NCBI GenBank assembly: GCA_035632315.1
Contig: DASQGZ010000048.1
Coordinates: 64,740 to 128,739, forward strand
DNA length: 64,000 bases
Source: Candidatus Kapaibacterium sp.
Lineage (GTDB): Bacteria > Bacteroidota > Ignavibacteria > Palsa-1295
Direction: 5' to 3'
Of the stretch, positions 3,552 to 60,514 are shown in pieces. The notes under the pieces were generated by a model. The model saw only the letters and a program-made list of their open reading frames with translations, ran no database searches and was not told where the DNA came from. How positions within the stretch are numbered: position 1 is the stretch's first letter; each line of letters opens with the position of its first letter. The translations under genes were made by a program, and so were the position numbers.

Positions 3552-3914
3552 TCATTCTACCTCGACTTCAACCATCCCTTCGTCAATTCTGACCGGATAA
3601 ATTGGAATGCGCGGGCCGGTTCCGGGCCATGTGAGTGCTCCCGTCCGAAGCGAGAACACCCATGAATGCTCCGGGCATGTGATTTCATCATCAAAGACAT
3701 AACCATGTTCCATCGAAGTCCCTTGATGCGGGCAGATCGCTCCGCAGGAAAAGAGTTCAGACCCAGAGCGCATCACAAGTATCTGTTTGCCCGCGATGCT
3801 GCGGCATACGATCGACCCATTTGCCAATTCTTCATTTTTGACGATCTTCGTCCACATTCGTATATTTGTACTATTATAAACTGCAAAAATACCGCTCTCT
3901 AAGAGAAAGGACAC
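3552..3914 (-). CDS. Small Rieske [2Fe-2S] domain protein (NirD or Rieske-ferredoxin like)
   Basis: 120 aa with CPHQG...(16 aa)...CPEHSW, which is the CXH-X16-CXXH Rieske motif. Confidence 0.75.
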   Translation of the reverse strand: MSFLLESGIFAVYNSTNIRMWTKIVKNEELANGSIVCRSIAGKQILVMRSGSELFSCGAICPHQGTSMEHGYVFDDEITCPEHSWVFSLRTGALTWPGTGPRIPIYPVRIDEGMVEVEVE

Positions 3915-3942
3915 AATAGCTGCATCATTTGAGAACGGTATT

Positions 3943-5256
3943 GTGGATTTATATACTCATTCATCAATCAATCCCACTATGAAAAAAATCTTAAAGATCG
4001 TTGGTATCATTGTCGGTGCCATTGTTCTGCTTGTTGCAGGATTTATTGGTTTTCTCAAGGTAGCCGGGATGCCAAGTTTTAGCAATGTGAAGCGGCCCGA
4101 CGTTCATGTCGAGGTTACGCCAGTACGTGTCGAGCGGGGTCGCAAGATCATGGGTATGCTCTGTTATAATTGCCACTATAATGCAGCAACGAATAAGCTG
4201 AGCGGACATTTTCTCAATGAATCGCCGCCGGTCTTTGGGAAGATCTATTCCCACAATATCACGAGCGATAAAACGAACGGTATCGGAGGCTGGACAGACG
4301 GAGAAATTTTATACTTCCTGAGAACAGGTATTCATAAAAATAACGAATACGTCCCGCCATATATGCCGAAGTTTCCGCACATGGCAGAAGAAGATATTCA
4401 ATCGCTCGTAGCATATTTACGTTCGAATGACTCTCTTGTCGCACCGAGTACAGCACCCGATACTGCAGAAGAGCCCTCGTTGCTTGCTCTGTTTCTCGGA
4501 CGATTTGTTTTTAAGCCGTATTCGTATCCGACAGAAAATATTCCGTTACCTCCTGCCGGCAACTCCGTTGCTGTCGGGAAATATTGGGCGGCCAGTGTAC
4601 TTGATTGTTATCAGTGCCACAGTGCCGATTTTAAAACGAACGATGGTTTGAATCCGGAAAAATCAGTCGGATTTTTCGGCGGCGGCAACGAACTAACCGA
4701 TCCGATAGGTAAACCTGTCTTTTCAAGAAATATCACACCTGATATGGAACACGGTATCGGCAAGTGGACGCCGGGTATGTTCTTGCGTGCGCTCCGAGAC
4801 GGTCTTCGTCCGGATAATACGGCACTTCGTTACCCAATGGCACGCTTCCCGGAGCTCAGCGATTCTGAGATCGTTGCGATCTATGATTATTTACGAACCG
4901 TCCCGTCGCTTTCGACACCAAACAAGCAAAGTGCGGATTACAAATACGCAAATGCGAACCCCTCTGACGGTGAAAAAGTCTATTATAAATATGCGTGCTA
5001 TGCCTGTCACGGGCAGAACGGAATTGGGATGTGTGACCTGACGCATGCGTGTGATAAATATCATAGCGATGAAGAACTGACTAATTGGATCAAGAATCCG
5101 TCGAAGATCATCCCCGGCACGAAGATGCCGACGTGGGAAGGCACGATCCGCGAAGAAGAATTCGCGCCGCTGGTGCAATATGTCCGCCAACTCGGACATG
5201 AGACCCAAGCGAAGTTAAAAGAGAACAGCCAAAAAACAACGGCTTCTCTTAAGTAA
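3943..5256 (+). CDS. Membrane-anchored tri-heme c-type cytochrome
   Basis: 437 aa with an N-terminal TM helix and three CXXCH motifs (CYNCH, CYQCH, CYACH). Confidence 0.8.
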   Translation: MDLYTHSSINPTMKKILKIVGIIVGAIVLLVAGFIGFLKVAGMPSFSNVKRPDVHVEVTPVRVERGRKIMGMLCYNCHYNAATNKLSGHFLNESPPVFGKIYSHNITSDKTNGIGGWTDGEILYFLRTGIHKNNEYVPPYMPKFPHMAEEDIQSLVAYLRSNDSLVAPSTAPDTAEEPSLLALFLGRFVFKPYSYPTENIPLPPAGNSVAVGKYWAASVLDCYQCHSADFKTNDGLNPEKSVGFFGGGNELTDPIGKPVFSRNITPDMEHGIGKWTPGMFLRALRDGLRPDNTALRYPMARFPELSDSEIVAIYDYLRTVPSLSTPNKQSADYKYANANPSDGEKVYYKYACYACHGQNGIGMCDLTHACDKYHSDEELTNWIKNPSKIIPGTKMPTWEGTIREEEFAPLVQYVRQLGHETQAKLKENSQKTTASLK

Positions 5257-7342: not shown

Positions 7343-8143
7343 ATGAAAACGGTGATAATAGCGGTGTTTGTCTTTGCGGTCTCCGCGCATGCTCAAATGT
7401 ATCAGGGTAAGCAGGTATCGAACATTTCCTTAGTTTCAGGGGCTGTTAAGCCCGGCAAGCCGTTCACGCTCGGCATTCATATTCTGATGGAATCTGGCTG
7501 GCATACATATTGGAAGACACCGGGTGATGCCGGTGCGGCACCTGTTGCCGAGATCATTGGTGCACCGGATCTTACCGCCGGAGAACTGCGCTACCCGACA
7601 CCACATAAGATGATTTCGAGCGACATTGTGACGTATGGTTACGACGAAGAAGTCGTTTTCCTGCTGCCGGTACGCCCGAATAATGCAAACGCACCACACC
7701 GCTTCAAATTAAAACTGAACTGGCTCGTTTGCAAAGAAGTGTGTCTGCCGGCAGAGGCGATCCTTGAATTCAATATCGATTCGCTCAATGCCGACAGCAT
7801 CAAAGAAAATCAGCGGCTGCTCGACAGGTGGACGGCAAGATTGCCGCAGCCCGGAGCGGGTTTCAATCTCGACCATGCCGGAGCGCTGGCAACTGTTACA
7901 AAAGACAGCGCGATCAATCTGTTTGTTAAATTCTTCGATGTCGCACCGAATACCATTACTGATTTTTTTCCCATCGACCAGGAAGATTTTGTCATCAATT
8001 ACAACAGCATCGCTGCAACGCGCGACGGCATTTCAATGACGCTCACACCGGGACGTAAAGGGGCCGAACTCAAACAGATTGCCGGTGTCGTTCTGATCGG
8101 CACGACGGGATACGAAGTGAATGTGCCGGTGACGAAACAATGA
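7343..8143 (+). CDS. Secreted DsbD N-terminal (alpha) domain-containing protein (ScsB or DsbD-alpha like)
   Basis: Signal peptide plus the HTYW and WLVCKEVCLP motifs characteristic of the DsbD N-terminal domain. Confidence 0.65.
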   Translation: MKTVIIAVFVFAVSAHAQMYQGKQVSNISLVSGAVKPGKPFTLGIHILMESGWHTYWKTPGDAGAAPVAEIIGAPDLTAGELRYPTPHKMISSDIVTYGYDEEVVFLLPVRPNNANAPHRFKLKLNWLVCKEVCLPAEAILEFNIDSLNADSIKENQRLLDRWTARLPQPGAGFNLDHAGALATVTKDSAINLFVKFFDVAPNTITDFFPIDQEDFVINYNSIAATRDGISMTLTPGRKGAELKQIAGVVLIGTTGYEVNVPVTKQ

Positions 8144-8144
8144 A

Positions 8145-8795
8145 TTGCACTATTTCGTATTTTATCCGGTGCCACCTGAACAATGCTATTATATGTATAT
8201 GAAATTTCTTATTATTCTTTTTTTTGTGATGTCAATTACGTCAATGACCTCTGCACACCCCATCGAGATCGGCAAATCGGCCCCCAATTTCACATTGCCC
8301 GACCTCGACGGCAAACCCGTCAAGCTTTCCGACTTCAAAGGCAAGATCGTCGTGCTTGAATGGATCAACGAAGGCTGTCCGTTCTCCCGCGGACATTATG
8401 AATCGGGCAATATGCAATCGCTGCAAAAAACGTACACATCGAAAGGCGTCATTTGGCTGACGATCAACTCGACTCGTCCCGATCATCCGGAAGCGTTCAA
8501 TTCCGCGAAGAGTAAACAAGTGCTCACCGAATGGAAATCGAATGCAACGACAAACCTAATGGATGAAGACCGTACAGTCGGGCATCTTTACGATGCAAAA
8601 ACAACGCCGCATATGTTCGTTATCGACGCAAACGGAATCGTTCGTTACCAAGGTGCGATCGACGATCATCGCGGCACTGACGGCGGAAAAAATGCACACG
8701 TCAACTATGTTCAAGAAGCGCTCGACGATATTCTTGCCGGGAAAGAAGTCACGGTCACGACAACAACACCGTACGGTTGTTCGGTGAAATATTAA
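8145..8795 (+). CDS. Secreted thioredoxin-fold redoxin family protein. The likely start is the Met at 8199.
   Basis: Signal peptide MKFLIILFFVMSITSMTSA and a thioredoxin-like region with a GCPF redox motif. The gap to the upstream DsbD-alpha gene is 1 nt. Confidence 0.6.
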   Translation: MHYFVFYPVPPEQCYYMYMKFLIILFFVMSITSMTSAHPIEIGKSAPNFTLPDLDGKPVKLSDFKGKIVVLEWINEGCPFSRGHYESGNMQSLQKTYTSKGVIWLTINSTRPDHPEAFNSAKSKQVLTEWKSNATTNLMDEDRTVGHLYDAKTTPHMFVIDANGIVRYQGAIDDHRGTDGGKNAHVNYVQEALDDILAGKEVTVTTTTPYGCSVKY

Positions 8796-18140: not shown

Positions 18141-18587
18141 TCACTGTTTCTTATTCGGCTGTCCTTTGCCGGTGGTGATCAAGTTTCGCAAGCTGCCATT
18201 AACGTACGAACCCCATGCATTCGAGCAGATATCGAAGCATTCATATTCGGGGACTAACCCAAGTTGAGTGAAGCGAATCTCGGTTTTATTATCTTTTCGA
18301 GAAACTTCGAAAATAATTTTATTGCCGATCCACTCAGTCTTGTCTTTGGTGAAATTAAAGTAGTTATCTACCACATCCCAAACAACCTTTTTATTCGGAA
18401 TGAACTCCGTTATCTTCATCGTGCTGCGGTGTACGTCTTCATAATGATACTTCCACTCGGCGCCGAGTTTACCGGTACTGCCTTCGATCTCTTCCGACCA
18501 CCATCCCCGAGGATTATTGATCGCTGCGAAAGCTTCTTCGGGAGTTTGATCTACCGAGAACGCCGTCGTGTAATTTTGATTGTTCAT
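18141..18587 (-). CDS. SRPBCC superfamily protein (AHSA1 / activator of Hsp90 ATPase homolog-like)
   Basis: 148 aa. It is a paralog of the next gene (shared QTPEEAFAAINNPR.WW). Confidence 0.65.
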   Translation of the reverse strand: MNNQNYTTAFSVDQTPEEAFAAINNPRGWWSEEIEGSTGKLGAEWKYHYEDVHRSTMKITEFIPNKKVVWDVVDNYFNFTKDKTEWIGNKIIFEVSRKDNKTEIRFTQLGLVPEYECFDICSNAWGSYVNGSLRNLITTGKGQPNKKQ

Positions 18588-18596
18588 ATTGTCTTT

Positions 18597-19040
18597 TTAA
18601 AAAGTAGTTTTTTCCGCGACTCCTGTTGCAATCAGGGTTCGTAAACTTTTACCGACGAGTGACACCCATGCGCTCGAGCAGGCGTCATAACACTCGATCC
18701 CCGGGTATAAGCCGTCGTGCGTGAATCGCACTTCGGTCCGCTCGCCCTTCTTCGCGATATCAAAAGTTATTTTTGTGCCGTCCCACTCGCTTTTATCTTT
18801 GAGAAAATTAAGTTGACTTTCCGATACGAGCCAAACGACTTTCTTGCCTGGAATAAACTCTGTTACGGTCTGTTTGCTGTAGTGATGGGGTTCGTACTGA
18901 TAGGTAAACTCACTCCCAAGTTTATCGCTGTTGCCCTCGAATTCCCCAGTCCACCAGGCGCGGGGATTATTGATAGCTGCAAATGCTTCTTCCGGAGTCT
19001 GATCTACCGTAAAGGCAATTGTGTAATCTGATGTAGTCAT
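18597..19040 (-). CDS. SRPBCC superfamily protein (AHSA1-like), tandem paralog
   Basis: 147 aa, ~50% identical to the neighbouring gene. Confidence 0.65.
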   Translation of the reverse strand: MTTSDYTIAFTVDQTPEEAFAAINNPRAWWTGEFEGNSDKLGSEFTYQYEPHHYSKQTVTEFIPGKKVVWLVSESQLNFLKDKSEWDGTKITFDIAKKGERTEVRFTHDGLYPGIECYDACSSAWVSLVGKSLRTLIATGVAEKTTF

Positions 19041-21854: not shown

Positions 21855-21913
21855 GGCCGAAATTCATCCTAACAGAGTTATTTTTAAAGAAAACTCCTTA
21901 CAAAAATACAAAA

Positions 21914-22008
21914 TAAAAAAAACCGTTAACGCAGGGAGCTATAGCGGCTTCAATATATACCACCGGTGAAGACTTACTTTCCCAAGCCTGACTGGCTAAG
22001 TATTATCA
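21914..22008 (-). repeat. Decayed copy 1 of the 5S rRNA 3'-end plus terminator unit
   Basis: An A-run, a degenerate hairpin and ~45 nt matching the 5S 3' end (GACTTACTTTCCCAAGCCTGACTGGCTAAGTATTATCA versus 31124-31160). The stop codon of gene 21996-22595 lies inside it. Confidence 0.55.
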
Positions 22009-22595
22009 ATGCCCCCAGAGGAGAATGCAAGAATTATATTTGCGTAAGTTCGCCAGTCCTTCATGCTCGTATCAATTCTTAAGTATGGAAGACGAGTTTT
22101 GCCAAGAGCATCAATTCTTCTTTGTTGAGAGGTTTGAACTGCAGCTATCGCATTCTCTCGAGATCCGTAATATGCAATCATCACATCGGCATATTCATTA
22201 TTCTCAGTGCGGTCAATGGATCGGCGTTCAGTAAGTGAAGCTTCGAAGCTAAGCAAAATAATACAAGCCCCCAATTCAAACAGCCGTTTGTCGAAAGCTT
22301 CCAATTTTTCCCAATAAGGAAAGAGAGCGTAGCCTGTAGGATGAAATCGCTCAACAACAATTATCTCGGATGGCTGTTTTTCCTTATGCTGCTCAATGTG
22401 GCGAAGACTTACTTCCAATGCATCAAAATGCGGCTCTGCTTTCCATGATTCATCTCGTACTTGCTGCATAAGACTACCCAGAGTTTCCTCTTCAGAAATA
22501 TAATATGTTGTTGTCGGCAAGAGTGTTTTTAAGTCTCTGATAACGGAGCTTTTTCCCGATCCGGTAACACCTTCTATGATTATGATTCGATTCAT
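21996..22595 (-). CDS. P-loop NTPase / kinase-like protein
   Basis: Walker A motif EGVTGSGKSS. The C-terminal 4 codons are encoded by the 5S-like repeat. Confidence 0.5.
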   Translation of the reverse strand: MNRIIIIEGVTGSGKSSVIRDLKTLLPTTTYYISEEETLGSLMQQVRDESWKAEPHFDALEVSLRHIEQHKEKQPSEIIVVERFHPTGYALFPYWEKLEAFDKRLFELGACIILLSFEASLTERRSIDRTENNEYADVMIAYYGSRENAIAAVQTSQQRRIDALGKTRLPYLRIDTSMKDWRTYANIILAFSSGGIDNT

Positions 22596-22671: not shown

Positions 22672-22732
22672 AAAAACTTACAACTAACGATTACCCCACC
22701 TACTTCCCCAAGCCGACTTGCTAAATATCATC
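22672..22732 (-). repeat. Decayed copy 2 of the 5S 3'-end unit
   Basis: CCTACTTCCCCAAGCCGACTTGCTAAATATCATC is ~85% identical to the 5S 3' end. It contains the stop codon of gene 22728-23255. Confidence 0.5.
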
Positions 22733-24623: not shown

Positions 24624-24679
24624 ATAAAGGTCATTGAGTGAATTACAACAAAGATACTAAAGAATCTTGATGCGAGATA

Positions 24680-24745
24680 AAAAAAAACTCGAATGCAAGA
24701 GCGATAGCGGGGTAACATACAACCCCCTGACGATGACCTACTTTC
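24680..24745 (-). repeat. Decayed copy 3 of the 5S 3'-end plus terminator unit. It is a candidate distal boundary of the island.
   Basis: AAAAAAAACTCGAATGCAAGAGCGATAGCGGGGTAACATACAACCCCCTGACGATGACCTACTTTC is ~85% identical to 31068-31135 (terminator, flank and the last 25 nt of 5S). Confidence 0.55.
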
Positions 24746-25037
24746 AGATTCTTCGCGGAGTTTTCACTGAGCAGATGTGAATGTGCTCAGAATGACACCG
24801 CTGGTTGAGCTTTATAGATTAATATCACAAAAGTATATAAAAATTTGATAAATTACACTATTTATCAATATTTTATCAATAATACTTGCATTTTTGATTT
24901 TTATTTCGTATATTTGCAGCCAGAGATTAGCCAACATATCTGAAGCCGGCATCCTGCCCGCTCATCATTCAGCGTTTCCGGCACCTCCTTCATTCAAGTA
25001 CTGCGAAGTACATTTATTGCCAAGTACTTTTATCGTT

Positions 25038-26426
25038 ATGCAACAGACAACTCCTTCCGAGTTCGCGCATTCGCGGCTTGGGCTTACTTCATGGAAAAAA
25101 TTCGATGCCATTTTCGAAGCCGTCGAAGCGGGGCATCGGCGCATACTCGTTCGAAGCGCAAATGGCGTCGGCAAAACGACGGCGCTTGCGGCGCTTTGCA
25201 ACTGGAAGCTTTCGACTTCGGACGAATGCATCGTCCTCACCACAAGCTCCAGCGAAAAACAGCTTCGGCATAATCTTTGGGGTGAGATCAGGGCGCAGGC
25301 GATGAAAGCGAATCTGTATGAACCGAAAGATATCACTGATACGCGCATCAAGCTCGGCGAAAAAAGATTTATGCTTGCGGTTTCTCCTGCAAAGCCAGAA
25401 TCCGCGCAGGGGTTTCATGCTGCAAGCATGCTCATTGCCGTTGATGAAGCCACCGGGGTTCGCCGCGATATTCTTTCTTCGCTGATCGCAACGGCAAGCA
25501 GTGACGACGTGCAGATCGTGATGATCTATAATCCCATCACACCCGATAGTTTTGTTTATGAAGCAGAGCGATCGGGCGATTGGCACCTCGTCACGATCAG
25601 CGCGCTCGAACATCCGAACGTTGCAAAGAAAAAAACGAAGATCGCAGGCGCCGTTACCTTGAAAGCGACGGAGCATAACCTCAAACTCTGGAGCGAAGAA
25701 GCGGCGCCGGATGACGGCGAATCGTTCGAGCTGCACGGCAAATGGTGGCGCAAGACGCTCGAAGTCTGCCGCCGCATTCTCGGTCAGTGGTACGACGATT
25801 TTGGCGAAGGTATCATCTCGCGCGCGCTCGTGAATGCTGCAATCACCAATACAAATGCCGAGCGCGGAGCGAAGTCGATGGGTGTCGATCTTGCCGGCGG
25901 CGGCAAGGACGAGACCGTGATCGCCCGCTTCGATGGAGGCATCGGGTTGCCGCTGATCGTTATGCGCTCATCAAAAATTCTTGATATCGTTTCACGCATC
26001 GAAGAAGAATACCGCTCAGGATTTACGCGCATTGCCATCGATGAAACAGGTGTCATCGGCACGGCGTCCGAACTGCTTGCTGTGCGCGATATCAAGGTGC
26101 ATTCGGTTGCATTCTCGGCAAAGGCGATCGGCACATACGACAGCCGCGTCCGAACGCTCGGCAACAGGCGAATGGAAATGTATTACCATCTGCGCGAAGA
26201 ACTGCGCGCCGAAAAATTGCAATTAGTAGATGACGGAAAACTTGCCGAAGAACTTTGCACGATGAAGCTATCGACCAAAAGCACGAACGATAAATATTAC
26301 CTCGAACCGAAAGAGAATATCACCGCCCGCCTCGGCCACTCCCCCGATCGCGCCGATGCTACAGCGCTGGCACGATATGCGAATTTATTAGCGGAATATG
26401 ATGCCAAACCGCTCGTGATGTTTTGA
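25038..26426 (+). CDS. Phage terminase large subunit-like protein (ATPase plus RNase-H-like nuclease). The track ORF starts at 24894, but the likely start is MQQTTPSEF.
   Basis: Walker A NGVGKTT, Walker B VDEA and a C-terminal nuclease domain beginning GVDLAGGGKDETVIA and ending PDRADA. Upstream is a Bacteroidetes-type -7 element TATATTTG. Confidence 0.65.
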   Translation: MQQTTPSEFAHSRLGLTSWKKFDAIFEAVEAGHRRILVRSANGVGKTTALAALCNWKLSTSDECIVLTTSSSEKQLRHNLWGEIRAQAMKANLYEPKDITDTRIKLGEKRFMLAVSPAKPESAQGFHAASMLIAVDEATGVRRDILSSLIATASSDDVQIVMIYNPITPDSFVYEAERSGDWHLVTISALEHPNVAKKKTKIAGAVTLKATEHNLKLWSEEAAPDDGESFELHGKWWRKTLEVCRRILGQWYDDFGEGIISRALVNAAITNTNAERGAKSMGVDLAGGGKDETVIARFDGGIGLPLIVMRSSKILDIVSRIEEEYRSGFTRIAIDETGVIGTASELLAVRDIKVHSVAFSAKAIGTYDSRVRTLGNRRMEMYYHLREELRAEKLQLVDDGKLAEELCTMKLSTKSTNDKYYLEPKENITARLGHSPDRADATALARYANLLAEYDAKPLVMF

Positions 26427-26465
26427 GGGCATATCCGTTTGGGATTGAAAGTGGCTCCGAGAGGC

Positions 26466-26975
26466 TTAACGTTTCAATCTTGCCGAGAATTCAACCCCAA
26501 TTTCCGCAACAAAATCAGAATCATTGACCCAGCGAACATTCATATTTTCACAGACATTTGGAATTCTTACATTTCTTGCACTTGGGGCAGTTACTTTCCC
26601 CTCCTTGGTAACAACGCAAGCATTTTCTTTCATAGCGTGTGCAATTACCCAAGGGTCAGCAAGCGACCGATTCCTTCTATTATCCACGAGAAACTTATGC
26701 AGTGGATTCGTGTCGTATATTTTTTGCAAACATTTTGTAACTTCTTCATCTATTGGCTTTTTCTCTATGCTACTTTCTCGCAACCATTCTGCCAGGTCAT
26801 CATCCGTTTTCGTAATTTCTTCGAAGACATTTTCTGGTAGAAAAATTATCCCCGTGTGACCAATATCATTGAGAATACTCCAATAATCCGGGCAGAATTT
26901 TGGAGAATAATAAAATTGCCAAGCCTGAATAAGGACGTTGGCGTCCAAACAATATTTATCAGAGCGTGGGGGCAT
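26466..26975 (-). CDS. DUF4411-like PIN-fold protein, putative nuclease/toxin
   Basis: 169 aa with the N-terminus YCLDANVLIQAW. It lies 8 nt downstream of the ImmA/IrrE gene, so it is an operon partner. Confidence 0.55.
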   Translation of the reverse strand: MPPRSDKYCLDANVLIQAWQFYYSPKFCPDYWSILNDIGHTGIIFLPENVFEEITKTDDDLAEWLRESSIEKKPIDEEVTKCLQKIYDTNPLHKFLVDNRRNRSLADPWVIAHAMKENACVVTKEGKVTAPSARNVRIPNVCENMNVRWVNDSDFVAEIGVEFSARLKR

Positions 26976-26983
26976 TATTAAAA

Positions 26984-28168
26984 TTAATAAAGCTGTGCTA
27001 GCATTTTAGGGAATTTAGTGAGTGAAATATTTAATAAGCTGCTTGCCTGGGTCGGTTGAATAAATCCACCTTTGAAAGCATCAATAACAGTCTGTGTAAA
27101 TAATTTGCCATTTTTATTTGCAAGCAACAAATAATAGTTAGGCCCCCCTTCTTTCTCTTTAGAAGCAAGTTTCTTGGCAGTCTCCTTTTCAATGTATTTC
27201 TGAAACTCTTTGTCGAGTATATTCTTAATAACCCTGTATTTCTCTAAGGAAATTAAACCTAAATTGTACCCGCGTACTAACAACGCTAACGAGCTTACGC
27301 CAAAAATTTTTGAAGTCTTGTACAATTTTTCCTGAGAATGGAAAAGTGACGGATCCAACTTCTTGATTATCTGGTAAGGCATTAATGCCGATGCGGCTAC
27401 TTCATTGCAAAAATATTCAACTGGTTCAGGATGGCCTGCAGATTTTGCCTGCGGAATTATGTCATTAGAAATTCCGGATGCTGCAATCCAAACATGTGCA
27501 AGTTCATGTACAAGTGTAAATAACTGAGGAGTATCCCAATCATTGGAATTGATAAACACGAATGGTGCATGCTGGTCGGCAAGAGCAAAACCTTGCATCT
27601 CGTCGCTATCTAATAAGAGTTTCGAATGTATTAAGCTTGTTCTTGAAATAAATATCCCAGCCCGTTCAGCGCTTGCAATCCATTCACGATACGGATTCAC
27701 CGTTTTATAGTGAGCTGGATCAATTTGCAAGGTCTGTAGGATATCAGCAGCTACCTTTGCCGGGTCATCTGATGAAGAAAATTTTCCAACGAACGGAAGC
27801 TTCTCTTCTCCATTCTCTTGGTAAAATTCTCTCATCCATTCTTGTTTTTGACGAAGTTCTCTAATAATAAATTCGGATGCCGTCCCCAATGGCTTCGCAC
27901 TTTTTTTTCGAAAATCCTTTAATGGTTGAAAGTCTATTGGGGGCTCGGGAAGAAAGAAAATGGCAAAGGGTCTTTTATAGACTTTCGCTAATTTCTGTGC
28001 TTGTTTAATAGTTGGCAGGCCTGTACCGGCTTCCCATTCCAGTAACTTGTCAGTATCAATTGCCGCTTTTAAGGCAGCAATTTCAGGAGAAATTTTTGCA
28101 GTTTCTCGAGCCCACTTAAGGACGACGGGTGTAACGTTTGCTCGGTCTGCCATTAGAGATGAAAACAC
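26984..28168 (-). CDS. XRE-type HTH fused to an ImmA/IrrE family zinc metallopeptidase (DUF955 / M78)
   Basis: N-terminal HTH and the HELAHVW HEXXH motif. Confidence 0.8.
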   Translation of the reverse strand: MFSSLMADRANVTPVVLKWARETAKISPEIAALKAAIDTDKLLEWEAGTGLPTIKQAQKLAKVYKRPFAIFFLPEPPIDFQPLKDFRKKSAKPLGTASEFIIRELRQKQEWMREFYQENGEEKLPFVGKFSSSDDPAKVAADILQTLQIDPAHYKTVNPYREWIASAERAGIFISRTSLIHSKLLLDSDEMQGFALADQHAPFVFINSNDWDTPQLFTLVHELAHVWIAASGISNDIIPQAKSAGHPEPVEYFCNEVAASALMPYQIIKKLDPSLFHSQEKLYKTSKIFGVSSLALLVRGYNLGLISLEKYRVIKNILDKEFQKYIEKETAKKLASKEKEGGPNYYLLLANKNGKLFTQTVIDAFKGGFIQPTQASSLLNISLTKFPKMLAQLY

Positions 28169-28202
28169 ACAAGCACCTATAAAGTGGTTCCATAATGTAG
28201 AC

Positions 28203-28754
28203 TTATATTACTTCCCAGGCAGAAATTTTGGCCTGTTGATGGATAGGATGCTTTAAACCAGTACGTATTTGCTCTATACGATTCCCCAATTTAATTTTTA
28301 CTACCGATTTTGCAATTGCCTCAAAAGATTTTAAAAGAGGTTCAGTGCTAATAATAGCCGGACTATGTTCATAGCTAATCGTTAACACTGCTTTTCTTTC
28401 CTTACCCTTCCATTCCCGAAGTTTTAAGCAATCGCCTATCGCGCTTGAATTCCCCGGATATGGATGGAGGAGATTCACTGTCCAATTTTCAGCTTCTTTG
28501 CCGTTATCACCATACGGCCGTGCAATTTTAAACTCAATTGCCCAATAATCTTCTATCAGAAGATCTGGATTGCGTTTTGCCTTGCATCGCCCATCGAAAT
28601 GTTTAAGCTGATTCAGGTAGTATTCTATTCTCTTGACCAGTTGCGGCTCACCATACGGCCCGACTCCGGGATGATAGGCCTTAAACGGCGGATCGTTTTT
28701 ATCAATTTGAACCAGTGCATCTGAGATGTCTTTTACAACATTGTTCAGTGTCAT
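28203..28754 (-). CDS. Hypothetical protein with a PD-(D/E)xK-like nuclease motif
   Basis: RNPD-LLI-EDYWAIEFK fits D...(D/E)xK spacing. It lies 34 nt upstream of the ImmA/IrrE gene on the same strand. Confidence 0.35.
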   Translation of the reverse strand: MTLNNVVKDISDALVQIDKNDPPFKAYHPGVGPYGEPQLVKRIEYYLNQLKHFDGRCKAKRNPDLLIEDYWAIEFKIARPYGDNGKEAENWTVNLLHPYPGNSSAIGDCLKLREWKGKERKAVLTISYEHSPAIISTEPLLKSFEAIAKSVVKIKLGNRIEQIRTGLKHPIHQQAKISAWEVI

Positions 28755-28881
28755 AGTAGTAAGATATTTCTTGAAAGAAATAAAAGTTGCTTATGCAGAG
28801 TGATAGTCGTTTACCATACAATCCCTGTCAACGATCCGTTCGCCACCGATCACCTTTTGCGATCTTGGGAGAGCCGAATTT

Positions 28882-28903
28882 CTGGTGATTAAAAATCACC
28901 AGT
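28882..28903. promoter_or_regulatory. Perfect palindrome CTGGTGATT-aaaa-AATCACCAG ~130 nt upstream of the PD-(D/E)xK gene. It is a candidate operator.
   Basis: 9-bp arms. This is the only such site in the window. Confidence 0.3.
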
Positions 28904-28976
28904 TAATATATGTTGCTCCGAAGTGACGACATATAACTTATTGTTCACTATTTATCACATTTAACAATTTACACCT

Positions 28977-29147
28977 ATGAAAACCCAATACATGAATAAC
29001 GTCCCGTTTCTTCCGGGAGAATTAACCATTGTGACATCCGATCATGCCGAGCTGGCGATGCAGCATTCGGCGCGGCTTGCCGATTCGTTTCGCAGGGCGC
29101 GGCTGAACGGGAATAATAGGGGTGAAAACACTGTTTTATCAATGTGA
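28977..29147 (+). pseudogene. 5' fragment (49 codons plus RBS) of a paralog of gene 29696-30400. It forms direct repeat 1 (28975-29109).
   Basis: ~95% nucleotide identity to 29694-29828. The reading frame is open for 49 codons and then diverges and stops. Confidence 0.6.
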
Positions 29148-29320
29148 AAAAACTCACAATCGAAACCAATACCCACCTCAACGACCGCGATAAGCGGCGG
29201 GCTGCTATTGTGCATTCGGTCATTGCGTCGTCCCGGATCGAAGGGATATTGTTGACCAAAGCGCAGGAAGAAGCCATTGCCCGTCGGGTTGACAAGCGTC
29301 TTAAAAAAGACTCCGAATGA
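29144..29320 (+). CDS. VbhA/YhfG-like Fic-antitoxin remnant (58 codons, GTG start)
   Basis: Contains SSRIEGI, matching the (S/T)xxxE(G/N) Fic-inhibitory motif. It is convergent with, and overlaps, the Fic fragment. Confidence 0.4.
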   Translation: MKKLTIETNTHLNDRDKRRAAIVHSVIASSRIEGILLTKAQEEAIARRVDKRLKKDSE

Positions 29321-29600
29321 TCCGTTTCATCGGTTCATAGTTTTCATCGGCGGCCGCCTGGACCGCTGCAACATATTCGTCAAATCGTTCTTCTGTGATC
29401 TTCTCGAAGTGCAGTAATTCGAACCCCTGCTGAACAGCCATTGCATTTGCCAGAATTCGCATCACGCGACCGTTGCCTTCGCGGAACGGATGGATGAATA
29501 ACAACTCGGCATGGACGACGGCGATCGCATCTATCAATGCGTCACGACCCGGATACAGCAGCGGCAATTGTTTTAGAATATCCGTTTCGAATTTCTGCAT
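29301..29600 (-). pseudogene. N-terminally truncated Fic (filamentation induced by cAMP) domain protein
   Basis: HPFREGNGRVMR is the canonical Fic motif. At 99 aa it lacks the N-terminal helices. Confidence 0.6.
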
Positions 29601-29650
29601 TGTCAGCGGCAGGTACTTTCAGGTAAGAGCGTAATCAACCACCCCAACCC

Positions 29651-29680
29651 CGCCTTGAAAAGGCGAGACAGATTTTTTTT
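29651..29680 (+). terminator. Hairpin CGCCTT-gaaa-AGGCG followed by a T8 run
   Basis: Seen directly in the sequence. Confidence 0.45.
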
Positions 29681-29695
29681 AATCTATCAACATCT

Positions 29696-30400
29696 ATGAA
29701 AACCCAATATATGAATAACGTCCCGTTTCTTCCGGGAGAATTAACCATTGTGACATCCGATCATGCCGAGGCGACGATGCAGCACTCGGCGCGGCTTGCC
29801 GATTCGTTTCGCAAGGCGCGGCTGAACGTCCTTGTCATTAATTGCGGGATGAACGAGCGCCGCTTCCGCCAGCATTATCACGATACGTACGGCTCCGGTA
29901 TCGATACAACACCGACGGTGATCCTGAAGACATCGCTTTTAGGAAATGTCGCCGGCGACCGCGAAGGGATCGATCAGATCGTGCGCGAAGCGAAGATCGG
30001 CGTCGTGATCCTTGCCGGCTGGGAATTTGCATCGGGAACGCGCCGCCGCCGCAACAAATTATTCTTTTACCTTCGCGAGCTCATGGCCGAACGCGATATT
30101 GCCGTCATCGTGTATTCGCAAACGATGAATAATCCTGTTGCCGGAAAAATGGGCGCACTCGGAAAGCTTGCCGCCGCGGCAATGGAAGTGGTGAAGATCG
30201 ATTCGTCGAAAGTGCTGGAAGCGGTCGTGAAAAAGCCGCCCGTGATCGCGTGGGAATCGGCAGATGAGATGCATACCATTGAACAGGGGGTACAGCGATT
30301 AGTCAGGAATATCAATGAGTTAGCAGACCATCAGTGCACATCGGATGAAGATGCACGGCAAATAGAGAATGACGATGGAGACTACGGCGTGGCGGTGTGA
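29696..30400 (+). CDS. Hypothetical protein. The beta-strand pattern suggests a RecA-like fold without a Walker A motif.
   Basis: 234 aa. Its first 49 codons are duplicated upstream at 28977. Confidence 0.35.
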   Translation: MKTQYMNNVPFLPGELTIVTSDHAEATMQHSARLADSFRKARLNVLVINCGMNERRFRQHYHDTYGSGIDTTPTVILKTSLLGNVAGDREGIDQIVREAKIGVVILAGWEFASGTRRRRNKLFFYLRELMAERDIAVIVYSQTMNNPVAGKMGALGKLAAAAMEVVKIDSSKVLEAVVKKPPVIAWESADEMHTIEQGVQRLVRNINELADHQCTSDEDARQIENDDGDYGVAV

Positions 30401-30442
30401 AAAAGCCGATGTACGAATTTCCGTTGCCGAAGGGCCAGGGAT

Positions 30443-31069
30443 ATGTATATTTGCAAGAAGGATATAATTATGATACTACCTAAACTGTTACTTTCACTGA
30501 TCATCTCGGTTTCTATTTATAGTTTTTTCCCTCAGGGCGACGATCTGAATCTCGGATTTGAGCGAGTTGGTTACAAAGCCAAACCCATTGGCTGGTATGC
30601 CGGAGGAGGAGGAGGAAAGAAAGATGACCTTGACGGTTATCTCGGAGAGTGCGATTCGACGACAGTTCACTCGGGAAAATATTCTTTGCACTTGAAATAT
30701 CTCAAAGGTGACGGCTTCGGAGTCGGAACGAAAACACTCGACATCGCCCCACTCAGAGGCAAAACCATTCGCTTCAGCGGCTGGATCAAAACCCACAACG
30801 TCGGCGGGAAGAAAGATCACAATTTCGACGGGTACGCAGGTTTGTGGTGGAGAGTAGATGGGCCGGATCACAAGACGTTAGCCTTCAATAATATGCAAGA
30901 TAGCTTGGTCAACGGTACCCGTGATTGGCAGAGATATTCATTTGAATTACCGGTGGGAGAAACCGCTACGAATATAGATTTCGGAGTTCAAATGGCAGGG
31001 AAAGGCGAAGCATGGTTCGATGATCTGTCCATCGATACCAACGGGGTCCATTATTTAGGTTGGAAATAA
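30443..31069 (+). CDS. Hypothetical secreted protein
   Basis: Signal peptide and a G-rich linker. No catalytic motifs. Confidence 0.4.
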   Translation: MYICKKDIIMILPKLLLSLIISVSIYSFFPQGDDLNLGFERVGYKAKPIGWYAGGGGGKKDDLDGYLGECDSTTVHSGKYSLHLKYLKGDGFGVGTKTLDIAPLRGKTIRFSGWIKTHNVGGKKDHNFDGYAGLWWRVDGPDHKTLAFNNMQDSLVNGTRDWQRYSFELPVGETATNIDFGVQMAGKGEAWFDDLSIDTNGVHYLGWK

Positions 31070-31074
31070 AAAAA

Positions 31075-31106
31075 CCCTCGAACGCAAGAGCGATCGAGGG
31101 TTAACA
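31075..31106 (-). terminator. rRNA operon terminator (CCCTCGA...TCGAGGG hairpin followed by U-run on the minus strand)
   Basis: Sits immediately 3' of the 5S gene. Confidence 0.5.
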
Positions 31107-31111
31107 TACAA

Positions 31112-31228
31112 CCCCTGGCGACGACCTACTTTCCCAAGCCTGACTGGCTAAGTATCATCGGCTTACAAGGGCTTAACTGCTCTGTTCGGAATGGGAAGAG
31201 GTGTAGCCCCTTGGATATAGTCGCCAAA
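31112..31228 (-). rRNA. rrf: 5S ribosomal RNA
   Basis: Minus-strand sequence CCATTCCGAACAGAG...GTTAAGC...GGGAAAGTAGGTCGTCGCCAGGGG has the canonical 5S helices. Confidence 0.85.
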
Positions 31229-31439
31229 AGGAAACTTTATGAGTGGTCAGTGATCAGTGGCCGGTGGTCAGCTGATCAAAGACAGCGAACGGTGTGAATT
31301 GCGAATGATACGAGTATCGAACTATTGAATCTACATTCAATAAGTCTAAATTGTGACGAACACTATACCAAACACTATAGTAATGCGGTAGTAAGGTGTT
31401 TTGCGCGAGAATGTCGCACAAACTATCTCTACTACGAAA

Positions 31440-34425
<2,986 letters not shown>

Positions 34426-59110: not shown

Positions 59111-60304
59111 TTAGAACATTTTCCCAACCCTTGTTCTCGTTTCTACGTCCGCATCATATATCCGTTTCAGCCCCTGTGCAATATCTGATTCACTGGAGAT
59201 AACGAATGCTTCGTCGGATCGCGCTGGGGCGTTATCTATGGCGGATTCGATGAGTTTCGGAATGTCGGTGAAGCGTATCTTCTCATTCAAAAAGGCGTCA
59301 ACGGCAACTTCATTTGCCGCATTGAGAATGCAGGGATAAGCACCGCCGCGAGCAGCCGCTTCGCGTGAAAGCCGAAGTGTAGGAAAACGGTCGGTATCGG
59401 GCGCTTCGAAATCGAGACGATTATTTTTCAGAAGATCGAGCAGATCGTATGATGCCGACGCGCGTTCGGGAAATCCGAGCGCATATTGGATCGGCAATCT
59501 CATATCCGGCGCGCCGAGCTGCGCTTTGACGCTGCCGTCGGTGAACTCCACCATCGAATGGATAATAGATTGCGGATGTACGATAACATCGACTTTTTCG
59601 AGGGGAACACCGAAGAGCCACCGTGCTTCGATGACCTCTAAGCCTTTATTCATCAACGTTGCCGAGTCGATCGTGATCTTTCGGCCCATTACCCAATTCG
59701 GATGCTTGAGCGCGCGCTCAACTGTAATACTGTCAAATTCTTCTTTCGGTGCCGTGCGGAACGGCCCGCCGCTTGCCGTGAGAATGATCCGCTTCACTGC
59801 ATCAACCGTTTCGCCAACAAGACATTGCAGCACTGCTGAATGCTCAGAATCTATCGGGATGATCTCTGCGCCGGTTTGCGCTGCAAGGCCAGTCATAAGT
59901 TCACCGGCAACAACAAGCGTCTCTTTATTTGCAAGGGCGATGCGTTTTCCTGCATGGATCGCCGCGATCGTCGGCTTTAATCCTGCAAAACCGACAAGAG
60001 CTCCGACGACCGTATCGATGTTGTTGCTTTCGGCGATCAGTTCGAGGGCTTCGTCACCGAATTGGATATCAACATCCTTCGGAGCTTTCTCGCACAGTTC
60101 ACGAAATGCGCCATTGTCGGTCATCACCACTGTCTTTGGGCGGAATTCGGCGATCTGTTCGAGAACAATATCAACCGAACGATGTGCTGAAATCGCTTCG
60201 ACCGAGAAACGTCCCGGATTATGGCGAACGACATCGAGCGTATTACGTCCGATGCTGCCCGTCGAACCGAGAATGGCGATACGATGTGGATTTTTCACGT
60301 TCAC
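59111..60304 (-). CDS. dxr: 1-deoxy-D-xylulose 5-phosphate reductoisomerase
   Basis: ILGSTGSIG NADPH-binding motif and full-length Dxr similarity. Confidence 0.9.
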   Translation of the reverse strand: MNVKNPHRIAILGSTGSIGRNTLDVVRHNPGRFSVEAISAHRSVDIVLEQIAEFRPKTVVMTDNGAFRELCEKAPKDVDIQFGDEALELIAESNNIDTVVGALVGFAGLKPTIAAIHAGKRIALANKETLVVAGELMTGLAAQTGAEIIPIDSEHSAVLQCLVGETVDAVKRIILTASGGPFRTAPKEEFDSITVERALKHPNWVMGRKITIDSATLMNKGLEVIEARWLFGVPLEKVDVIVHPQSIIHSMVEFTDGSVKAQLGAPDMRLPIQYALGFPERASASYDLLDLLKNNRLDFEAPDTDRFPTLRLSREAAARGGAYPCILNAANEVAVDAFLNEKIRFTDIPKLIESAIDNAPARSDEAFVISSESDIAQGLKRIYDADVETRTRVGKMF

Positions 60305-60400
60305 CGGAGCAAATGCAACAATTTGAAAATTCTCGCGTTAGTTGAACGTTGACAAACAACAACAAGACTGAAACAGAGCCGGGGAATATTATCATTCAAT

Positions 60401-60514
60401 AGATGTCATTGCGAGCATGGCGTACGCCATGCGAAGCAATCTAATATTTCGAAACAGTCTCCTCGCTTCAAGATATTAGATTGCTTCGTCGCTTCGCTCC
60501 TCGCAATGACATCT
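60401..60514. repeat. Palindromic intergenic repeat, copy C (AGATGTCATTGCGAG-core-CGAAGCAATCTAATAT, inverted twice)
   Basis: Left arm 60401-60447 and right arm 60473-60514. The cores differ. The left-arm core CATGGCGTACGCCATG is itself a palindrome. Confidence 0.6.

Follow-up and report, generated by a model that had tools for sequence, protein, structure and literature searches.

A decayed Fic toxin–antitoxin module of the FicY/AntY type in an uncultured Kapabacteria lineage, probably fused with the flanking DNA through illegitimate recombination

What are the closest described systems?

Fic toxins that AMPylate GyrB and ParE and are neutralised by an antitoxin have been characterised biochemically for FicY/AntY and others, and in FicY/AntY of Yersinia pseudotuberculosis YPIII the antitoxin is a convergent downstream ORF, AntY, which carries the motif S22TAIET27 and inhibits ParE AMPylation in vitro (Lu et al. 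2020, PMC7479194). The locus described here, which lies in a 64,000-nucleotide stretch of Candidatus Kapaibacterium DNA (the window, meaning the whole of the DNA that was analysed), resembles that pair in having an HPFxxGNGR Fic toxin and a ~55-aa antitoxin in a convergent downstream ORF, with the motif SSRIEG where AntY has STAIET, and differs from it in that the toxin is without its N-terminal half. The window's pair belongs to a Bacteroidota/Kapabacteria branch: what is left of its toxin is 46-47% identical to the enterobacterial ones, and its two genes overlap by 20 nt. In VbhT/VbhA of Bartonella, YhfG/Fic of E. coli and AntF/Fic-1 of Pseudomonas, there is likewise a separate small protein, whose [S/T]xxxE[G/N] helix obstructs ATP binding, but in these the antitoxin gene comes first in a co-directional operon, whereas the window's pair is convergent. 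To our knowledge, a tail-to-tail, 3'-overlapping Fic/antitoxin layout has so far been described for one Yersinia pair. The stakes of the individual locus are small, since a pseudogenised toxin with a surviving antitoxin is a common fate of TA modules, and this one comes from the MAG of an uncultured Kapabacteria lineage.

What remains of the toxin and its antitoxin?

The features that matter for the argument are these, in window coordinates:

28918-29109, plus strand: copy 1 of a direct repeat, an orphan 5' unit made of ~58 nt of upstream flank and the first 44 codons of a predicted RecA-fold gene
29101-29143, plus strand: left junction plus the DNA natively upstream of the antitoxin gene, from alignment with a related locus (L002)
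29144-29320, plus strand: antitoxin gene of the AntY/FicA type, intact, encoding 58 aa from a GTG start, recognised by its motif and by homologues beside Fic genes
29301-29320, strandless: 20-nt tail-to-tail overlap of toxin and antitoxin, as in relatives
29301-29615, minus strand: 3' half of a class-I Fic toxin gene, comprising the ORF 29600-29301 and 5 codons of upstream homology
29616-29650, strandless: right junction, between the Fic breakpoint and the hairpin, with no detected homology
29651-29685, plus strand: terminator-like hairpin CGCCTT-GAA-AAGGCG followed by T8, from folding
29690-29828, plus strand: copy 2 of the repeat, formed by the start of the intact gene, from BLAST and a repeat search
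29696-30400, plus strand: intact 234-aa gene for a conserved hypothetical protein with a predicted RecA/DnaB/KaiC-like fold and a degenerate Walker A

The toxin ORF (29600-29301, minus strand) encodes 99 aa and has HPFREGNGR at residues 37-45, in agreement with the Fic active-site motif HPFx[D/E]GN[G/K]R; H, P, F, R, G, N and the final R of the motif never vary among relatives (alignment A2), and E41 and G44 are nearly invariant (>=90%). The worry that this match might be spurious can be laid to rest, as the Pfam Fic profile is matched at E 2.9e-10 (profile 54-92/93) and the PADLOC phage-defence candidate PDC-S04 (PDLC04839) at E 1.8e-35. Every profile nevertheless tells of a fragment: PDC-S04 is covered at positions 104-200/205 only, the NCBIfam models mob_myst_B and Fic at 110-183/186 and 117-190/200, and the fragment aligns with residues 100-202 of the 203-aa Fic protein of one relative (L020), full-length relatives being about 190-220 aa long. 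By tblastn the homology runs 5 codons past the ORF start, to 29615, with an in-frame stop just before. Of a complete FIC domain, then, with its N-terminal helices and flap (..SKGGF.F), the C-terminal half alone is present, and the earlier note was right that the N-terminal half is missing, homology beginning about halfway, near residue 100 of ~200. With the 5' half of the gene some 100 codons have gone, among them those for the target-binding flap; without them the FIC domain presumably cannot form, so that the module would be non-toxic, and the 99-aa fragment is not expected to have AMPylation activity.

Convergent with this fragment is the 58-codon ORF for which an SSRIEG motif had been claimed, and it is indeed there, reading S29-S-R-I-E33-G34, an instance of the inhibitory-helix motif [S/T]xxxE[G/N]. 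A word-indexed homology search with this ORF returned one relative only, and it was through gene neighbourhoods that its family emerged, including a homologue of 65% identity (P0149) that adjoins a 198-aa Fic gene and another next to an intact Fic gene in L020; the intact Fic/antitoxin pairs that the earlier note proposed to look for in relatives do exist. Across 32 family members (alignment A6), the E of the motif is invariant and the S nearly so, and the top two PDB profile matches of the family (E 0.6-0.7) are to chains of Fic antitoxins, with the motif aligned. The label 'VbhA-like' holds at the level of the motif only: the Pfam VbhA profile (PF18495) does not match the 58-aa ORF at E <= 1 and matches two of the 32 family members, the better at E 0.049. 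Taken together, the motif and the Fic-adjacent homologues of the antitoxin, along with the loss of the ~100 N-terminal residues of the toxin, bear out the description of the locus as a degraded Fic toxin/antitoxin remnant.

The orphan antitoxin may still be expressed. Its GTG start overlaps the stop of a 56-aa chimeric ORF (GTGA), which opens with a duplicate of codons 1-44 of the RecA-fold gene, preceded by the few bases in front of that gene's ATG. Consensus scans for a sigma-70 promoter gave chance-level matches only.

Is the convergent layout native?

The toxin and antitoxin genes are convergent and overlap by 20 nt, as had been noticed, and the earlier note took the convergence as a sign of rearrangement, a view that the relatives do not bear out. 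Among 80 related loci drawn from many phyla, 79 have a convergent ORF of 50-70 aa that carries the motif [ST]xxxE[G/T/N] and overlaps the 3' end of the Fic gene (74 under a stricter filter), the overlap being 4-47 nt in nearly all of the 80 and exactly 20 nt in seven; L003 and L004 also show this layout. At least 79 species-level genomes have it, from Bacteroidota, Nitrospirota, Desulfobacterota-type MAGs, Gammaproteobacteria, Omnitrophota and CPR, and FicY/AntY shares it (PMC7479194). Convergent, 3'-overlapping pairs are the rule, and the tail-to-tail arrangement is the native architecture of the window's Fic subfamily. The probable assignment of this subfamily to FicY/AntY rests on the gene layout and on three enterobacterial loci of the same BLAST-defined set (L034, L040 and L062), which have exactly the STAIET motif and a 4-nt overlap.

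The partner ORF is easily passed over. In the one annotated RefSeq plasmid record that was inspected, NZ_CP048383.1, a Fic gene and its convergent partner overlap by 4 nt and the partner is annotated 'hypothetical protein', the very name that the 58-aa ORF of the window bears in its source record. PDC-S04, too, is modelled as a single protein, although the family carries a convergent partner ORF. Since this partner is widespread and goes under the name of hypothetical protein, Fic genes that appear to be without an antitoxin, PDC-S04 included, may have an overlooked inhibitor; the convergent overlap would also permit antisense interference besides inhibition by the protein.

What is the direct repeat?

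The remnant is bracketed by direct repeats, and the ~95% identity reported for them is real: positions 28971-29109 and 29690-29828 align over 139 nt at 95.0% identity (BLAST, E 3e-57), and a repeat search extends this to 28960-29109 and 29679-29828, 150 nt at 92%. There are six differences across 133 coding nt, the longest identical run is ~60 nt, and BLAST finds no third copy within the window. The extent had been put at the RBS and 49 codons; we find 44 codons, and upstream the high-identity part starts only about 6-17 nt before the ATG. Copy 1 continues into the 56-aa chimeric ORF (28977-29147).

A transposon or insertion sequence would be expected to leave a short (2-14 bp) identical duplication, whereas this repeat is 139-150 nt long and 5-8% diverged; the repeat search found no inverted repeats at its ends, and no transposase lies between or near the copies. 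Nor does the bracketed segment resemble an integrative element, being only about 580 nt long and without a recombinase. We agree, then, that this is no recent target-site duplication, given the 5% divergence, the lack of a transposase and the fact that a related metagenome contig (L087) has the orphan copy and its flank too.

The gene whose 5' end is repeated encodes a 234-aa protein with 27 homologues, identical (100%) to a protein of a Kapabacteria MAG (VEW28_08520), and it has no match in Pfam, NCBIfam or PADLOC. Its AlphaFold model (pLDDT 78.9) is matched by Foldseek to DnaB, RecA, KaiC and RadA at E ~1e-6, and on that model the product is predicted to be a RecA/DnaB/KaiC-fold protein; the fold search is the one source of this placement, the family profile having found nothing among PDB sequences. 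In every relative the DNA upstream of the gene is different, and homology starts at or near the start codon. A metagenome scan with the family turned up two loci only, L087 being one of them.

It is L087 that gives copy 1 its age. The flank and fragment of copy 1 match positions 7941-8124 of that contig at 86.5%, and the orphan fragment there ends within ~10 nt of the window's breakpoint, has a frameshift and is without the remainder of the gene. The flank upstream of copy 1 is 73.8% identical to L087 as against 39% to the region upstream of copy 2, and a three-base signature (GAGCTGGCG) is common to copy 1 and L087 and absent from copy 2 and from L001. As copy, flank and signature all recur in L087, the orphan 5' copy must be old, and the 'direct repeat' of 139-150 nt is then no more than an old 5' end of the RecA-fold gene and its current one. 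In the coding part, copy 1 is nearer to copy 2 (95.1%) than to L087 (92.7%), which requires either gene conversion or a donor closely related to the recipient. The earlier idea of a paralog of the gene as the recombination partner is plausible, but the orphan copy could equally be an older resident allele. The sequence that follows the breakpoint in L087 does not align significantly with the antitoxin upstream region (114 of 2000 shuffles), and for that reason we do not claim the same junction in L087 and the window.

How did the locus arise?

We think, with a probability of roughly 75%, that this is a decayed class-I Fic TA module of the FicY/AntY type and that illegitimate recombination brought it together with its neighbours. 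On the left, the module would have fused with a resident copy of the RecA-fold gene at codon 44, where a 9-nt imperfect microhomology (29101-29109, GGCTGAACG) links codons 42-44 with sequence upstream of the antitoxin; positions 29101-29138 align with the upstream region of a FicA homologue in L002, with a score reached by 1 of 2000 shuffles. Such a fusion would have left the orphan 5' fragment, old enough to occur in a related genome. At its right end, inside the Fic gene, the module would abut an upstream hairpin and the intact copy of the RecA-fold gene: Fic homology stops at 29615 (tblastn) and the hairpin begins at 29651.

That hairpin and its T8 run, which fold at -11.7 kcal/mol (z -4.46), had been listed with the contents of the bracketed segment; the structure is present, and we assign it to the upstream region of the gene and not to the Fic cassette, because it stands immediately upstream, as a hairpin or T-run does at the equivalent place in L087 and L088. 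A homology of the hairpin between copy 2 and copy 1 or L087, with compensatory stem changes, was considered and set aside, the upstream alignment being 39% identical and the copy 1 hairpin unfolded.

Homology-facilitated illegitimate recombination, or microhomology-mediated joining, is a general mechanism, and the locus is like it in its microhomology junction, in a foreign segment beside an rRNA operon as anchor, and in relics truncated on the anchor side; it is unlike it in that no donor molecule or competence system was found, the mechanism being inferred from the scar. Neither a donor nor a pre-insertion ('empty') allele was found, and among the related loci examined no other Fic locus adjoins the 234-aa gene or a 5S gene, so the whole locus in an intact, ancestral form did not turn up either. 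What we have is a dead toxin and a possibly still expressed orphan antitoxin, in a recombination scar that is real but ordinary.

Could the repeats instead be the attL and attR of an integrative element that targets the 5' end of the gene and supplies a surrogate 5' end, with a later internal deletion having removed nearly all of it, the integrase and the 5' half of Fic included? The upstream DNA that varies in every relative up to at or near the start codon, the breakpoints of L087 and the window within ~10 nt of each other, the site-specific-looking 5S 3'-end repeats in the same region and the integrase that adjoins a related Fic pair on a Citrobacter plasmid would all suit such an element, but 12-41 kb of the window holds no integrase or recombinase, the left junction is a microhomology inside the native upstream region of the antitoxin, which fits illegitimate joining and not an element end, the variable/constant boundary in the P0004 population lies 160 nt upstream of the ATG and so outside the gene, and the two breakpoints known are not identical. 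We consider this unlikely. Somewhat less probable still is a tandem duplication in situ, by unequal exchange between codons 42-44 and the antitoxin upstream region, which would have duplicated the antitoxin, the Fic remnant and the gene's 5' end and later lost the leftmost TA remnant. The microhomology at the junction and the mutual closeness of the two copies in their coding parts are what it would predict; set against these are the flank of copy 1, unrelated to the Fic remnant and shared with L087, the three-base signature common to copy 1 and L087 and not copy 2, and the need for an extra precise deletion.

We give very little credence to a functional 'mini-Fic' of 99 aa or to a two-strain assembly chimera. 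In the databases many homologues have called lengths of 99-116 aa, the catalytic motif is complete and the sequence does come from a MAG, with these exact proteins on one contig only; yet the short calls, where examined, are truncations or frameshifted genes, 66 of the 80 genome loci have Fic ORFs of 173-302 aa, homology in the window continues upstream of the ATG into the in-frame stop, and against a chimera stand the six differences between the copies, which share no identical run longer than ~60 nt, and the orphan fragment on an independent contig. Finally, the account in the earlier note, a co-directional VbhA/VbhT-like cassette made convergent by inversion or rearrangement, draws on the co-directionality of the best-known FicTA modules (VbhA/VbhT, YhfG/Fic and AntF/Fic-1; in part PMC7479194) and is refuted by the convergent overlap in 79 of 80 relatives with intact toxins in many phyla, overlaps that the 20 nt of the window match.

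What lies next door?

The locus sits in a defence/TA island beside a 5S rRNA gene, with a RosmerTA-like pair and further defence matches next door. Partial 5S 3' ends recur in this region with a single common boundary: three such relics, in two genomes, share the boundary that follows ...GTATCATC. Rfam at a permissive threshold gave no partial 5S copies, and it was BLAST and alignment that revealed them; a 5S att-like 35-mer had no matches in viral contigs. The common boundary hints at site-specific insertion into the 5S rRNA gene, which we know of no element using as an integration target. A doubtful extension is that small integrase-less defence/TA cassettes of 0.7-6 kb are added serially at one fixed site, 47 nt from the 5S 3' end, and that with each addition a 5S 3' end and its terminator are displaced and stay as a relic; the truncated Fic gene and the orphan gene start would then be collateral truncations of a polar, rRNA-anchored replacement, and the orphan antitoxin, translationally coupled, might be kept against incoming Fic toxins. 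Every truncated relic in the region retains the side away from the rRNA operon (the 3' ends of 5S, the start of the gene and the 3' half of Fic), a polarity that suggests successive one-sided replacements running from a variable breakpoint to the conserved 5S/23S anchor.

The decayed Fic pair and its repeats

The locus belongs to a known toxin–antitoxin type but has decayed, and it lies in a recombination-scarred defence island. A repeat search of the window recovered a direct repeat of 150 nt (28960-29109 and 29679-29828, 92% identical), and BLAST gave 95% identity for its core (E 3e-57); a Fic ORF and a small ORF lie between the copies, as the earlier note had it. The repeat spans 44 codons of gene 29696-30400, rather than the 49 first proposed, and across 133 coding nt the copies differ at six positions, two synonymous and four non-synonymous (three codons). 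Since BLAST finds no third copy in the window, the repeat is not the longer dispersed element considered as an alternative.

Features of the Fic scar
28971-29109: repeat copy 1, an orphan gene start
29144-29320, + strand: small ORF, 58 aa, GTG start, containing ...VIASSRIEGILL...
29600-29301, - strand: Fic ORF, 99 aa, containing ...FIHPFREGNGRVMR...; overlaps the small ORF by 20 nt
29651-29685: hairpin + T8, fold -11.7 kcal/mol, z -4.5
29690-29828: repeat copy 2, 5' end of the intact gene
24746-31062: the surrounding segment, with an AAA ATPase, a DUF4411/PIN-like gene and HTH-M78 protein, an unknown 183-aa gene, the Fic scar, the RecA-fold gene (29696-30400, + strand) and an unknown 208-aa gene

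Directly 5' of the scar (26466-28168), the DUF4411 PIN-like gene (169 aa) adjoins the HTH and peptidase M78 protein (394 aa), for which PADLOC gives RmrA matches (best E 2.2e-14); together they form a RosmerTA-like toxin/antitoxin defence pair.

How much of the toxin is left?

The Fic assignment is not spurious, for profiles from Pfam, NCBIfam and PADLOC all match the 99-aa ORF, in each case through the C-terminal part of the model only.

Profile matches of the 99-aa ORF
Pfam Fic: E 2.9e-10, profile 54-92 of 93
NCBIfam mobile mystery protein B: E 1.9e-09, profile 110-183 of 186
NCBIfam E. coli-type Fic: E 2.3e-08, profile 117-190 of 200
PADLOC defence candidate PDC-S04: E 1.8e-35, profile 104-200 of 205

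When aligned with the 203-aa Fic of L020, a Candidatus Kapaibacterium MAG, homology runs from residue 100 onward, extending five codons 5' of the ATG and ending at an in-frame stop codon, and the N-terminal '...IHK.AL..LY.FAGK.R.VN.SKGGF.F...' of full-length relatives is absent. Because homology starts behind this stop and the N-terminal part is missing, the toxin is genuinely truncated; the loss of its N-terminal half, described in the earlier note, holds in both the profile spans and the alignment. The missing part includes what we take to be the target-binding flap of Fic structures.

Such decay is not confined to the window. Among 80 surveyed Fic loci, eight have Fic ORFs below 130 aa, of which two (L036, L049) run off a contig end. 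L004 (a JGI contig, 3968-4303) and L037 are genuinely truncated, beginning at residue 94 in the first, almost the same point as in the window, and at residue 124 in the second. L007, L027, L057 and L070 keep the N-terminal part, with tblastn homology resuming 5' of the called ORF, either past the called start or in a separate piece; the latter is the case in L003 (Spirosoma koreense, 3744-4345), where Fic is split into ORFs of 72 and 114 aa. The small ORF is retained in all short-Fic loci but one, so loss of the toxin with persistence of the antitoxin is a recurrent end state. This, along with start-codon calls at conserved Met positions, probably accounts for many database entries of 99-116 aa.

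Is the convergent layout a sign of rearrangement?

This had been proposed, and it is contradicted by the relatives. The 58-aa ORF has a sole relative by direct search (P0149, 65% identity), which lies tail-to-tail with a 198-aa Fic gene on one contig. In L003 and L004, the opposite strand has an ORF of 54-58 aa carrying ...SFRIEK... or ...FSIEGI...; its overlap with the Fic 3' end is 26 nt. The 80 loci, drawn from 463 confirmed relatives in one-genome-per-species collections, have a convergent ORF of ~50-70 aa with [S/T]xxxE, the next residue mostly G, T or N, in 79 cases (74 under a stricter automatic filter), with an overlap of typically 4-47 nt, a range that includes the window's 20 nt. They come from Bacteroidota, Balneolia, Kapabacteria, Nitrospirota, Omnitrophota, one CPR genome, and delta- and gammaproteobacterial lineages (Providencia, Proteus, Serratia, Xenorhabdus, Pantoea). 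On the Citrobacter freundii RefSeq plasmid NZ_CP048383.1, a gene annotated 'Fic family protein' shares 4 nt with the convergent gene of a 52-aa 'hypothetical protein', and one characterised convergent case, FicY/AntY, is already in the literature (PMC7479194); the surveyed enterobacterial small ORFs carry exactly its STAIET. Because surveyed relatives, plasmid record and published case have the same layout, convergence is native to this Fic subfamily and uninformative on rearrangement.

The 'VbhA' label is not borne out, as Pfam VbhA barely matches the small-ORF family; a profile of 32 small ORFs matched only two chains in the PDB, both Fic antitoxins aligned at the motif (E 0.6-0.7). Both the one annotated record inspected (the plasmid) and the source record of the window call the small ORF a 'hypothetical protein', and the PADLOC model for this Fic (PDC-S04) is a candidate consisting of one gene. 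The breadth of the architecture is worth recording beyond the scar itself, and the convergent overlap could add antisense control.

Where did the orphan gene start come from?

The related metagenome contig L087 (identity to the window 94.5% in the 23S 3' end and 90.5% in 5S) has the upstream flank and first ~41 codons of the RecA-fold gene, frameshifted and 86.5% identical over 185 nt, followed by ~470 nt of unrelated DNA and the 5S gene; the rest of the gene is absent from L087. Copy 1 and this fragment appear to be the same relic because they have GAGCTGGCG in common, where copy 2, L001 and L088 (loci with the gene) have GAGGCGACG-type sequence, and because the ~60-nt upstream flank is 73.8% identical between them, against 39% between copies 1 and 2. 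A complication is that copy 1 is closer to copy 2 (95.1%) than to L087 (92.7%), with other derived bases common to the two copies. We therefore read copy 1 as an old orphan fragment, putatively orthologous with that of L087, plus gene conversion or an intact copy from a close relative. The half-length Fic and the old orphan copy bear out a degraded Fic pair, and not a recent target-site duplication.

At the left join, window 29101-29138 (GGCTGAACGGGAATAATAGGGGTGAAAACACTGTTTTA) is homologous to the antitoxin upstream region of the Fic locus L002 (GGCTTGACGGGGACGATAGCGGCGAGAAAATTGTTTTA), with a score reached by 1 of 2000 shuffles. Because the repeat ends with the nine bases that open this stretch (gene codons 42-44), the join sits in microhomology, the signature of illegitimate recombination. 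The result is a chimeric 56-aa ORF (44 gene codons and 12 new) whose stop overlaps the antitoxin GTG start (GTGA), which would allow translational coupling; a consensus scan identified no promoter for the antitoxin. On the right, Fic homology stops at 29615 (tblastn), and ~35 nt without detected homology precede the hairpin + T8 and the gene. We assigned the hairpin to the RecA-fold gene, not the Fic cassette, because L087 and L088 have a hairpin or T-run at the equivalent place.

The 234-aa product of that gene is a conserved hypothetical that has 27 homologues; it is 100% identical to a protein of a Candidatus Kapabacteria MAG, and no Pfam, NCBIfam or PADLOC model matches it. Its AlphaFold model (pLDDT 78.9) matches DnaB, RecA, KaiC and RadA cores (E ~1e-6), and in our reading of the alignments GELTIVTSDHAEA at the P-loop position is a degenerate Walker A. 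The DNA 5' of the gene differs in every relative and is rich in defence genes, such as HD-CE and ORC/CDC6-like genes in L001 and Eco57I-type methylase and HATPase genes in L088; within one population, L088 and L091 have two different neighbourhoods with a boundary 160 nt 5' of the ATG. Among the loci checked, no other Fic has this gene or a 5S gene as its neighbour.

What do the 5S relics record?

The scar lies within a ~9-kb stretch beside a 23S-5S pair, and this stretch holds relics of the 5S 3' end and terminator, delimiting gene segments of ~0.7, 1.9 and 6.3 kb.

5S genes and relics
Window 31113-31228: real 5S, terminator 31063-31112
Window 21911-22007: relic R1, right boundary ...GTATCATC-type, 47 nt from the 5S 3' end
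Window 22698-22732: 5S fragment, same right boundary as R1
Window 24674-24745: relic R2, right boundary 26 nt shorter
L001 7987-8079: partial 5S, right boundary ~2 nt or less from that of R1 (...GTATCA)

All truncated relics retain their rRNA-distal side (5S 3' ends, gene 5' end, Fic 3' half), which fits successive replacement of the DNA that runs from a breakpoint to the rRNA anchor. Of the four 5S relics, three, found in two genomes, have their boundary no more than ~2 nt away from one position (...GTATCATC|, 47 nt before the 3' end). This common boundary points instead to a site-specific step, the relics looking as though a 5S rRNA gene had been a repeated target of site-specific insertion. 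There is no integrase in 12-41 kb of the window, and a scan of viral contigs with a 5S 35-mer gave no match. These relics, too, are worth recording beyond the Fic scar.

Two short anchors, one at the 3' end of the gene for the 510-aa ATPase and the other at the orphan gene start, are conserved between L087 (5080-5210 and 7941-8124) and the window (26335-26464 and 28918-29099), and the DNA between them is entirely different, with a 644-aa secreted protein in L087 versus the DUF4411, M78 and 183-aa genes; the pattern is one of mosaic, cassette-like replacement. After its orphan fragment, L087 has AT-rich DNA (8190-8300) with repeated TCCATTAG(G)TTACTTT / AAAGTAAACT motifs that look like iterons or operators.

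The first 5S-bounded segment holds a 199-aa P-loop kinase-like ORF (21996-22595; weak PADLOC VakA match, E 2.8e-05). The 23S and 5S genes (31113-34416) have no adjacent 16S, an ORF at 34986 following the 23S 5' end: an unlinked rRNA arrangement. Elsewhere in the window, adjacent AHSA1-like paralogues of 148 and 147 aa (18141-19040) are 67.5% identical in DNA over 268 nt, and a ~120-nt imperfect palindrome (60398-60517, 76% self-complementary) surrounds the start of a 679-aa ORF (60506-62545, + strand), just past the start of a divergent 397-aa ORF (59111-60304, - strand).
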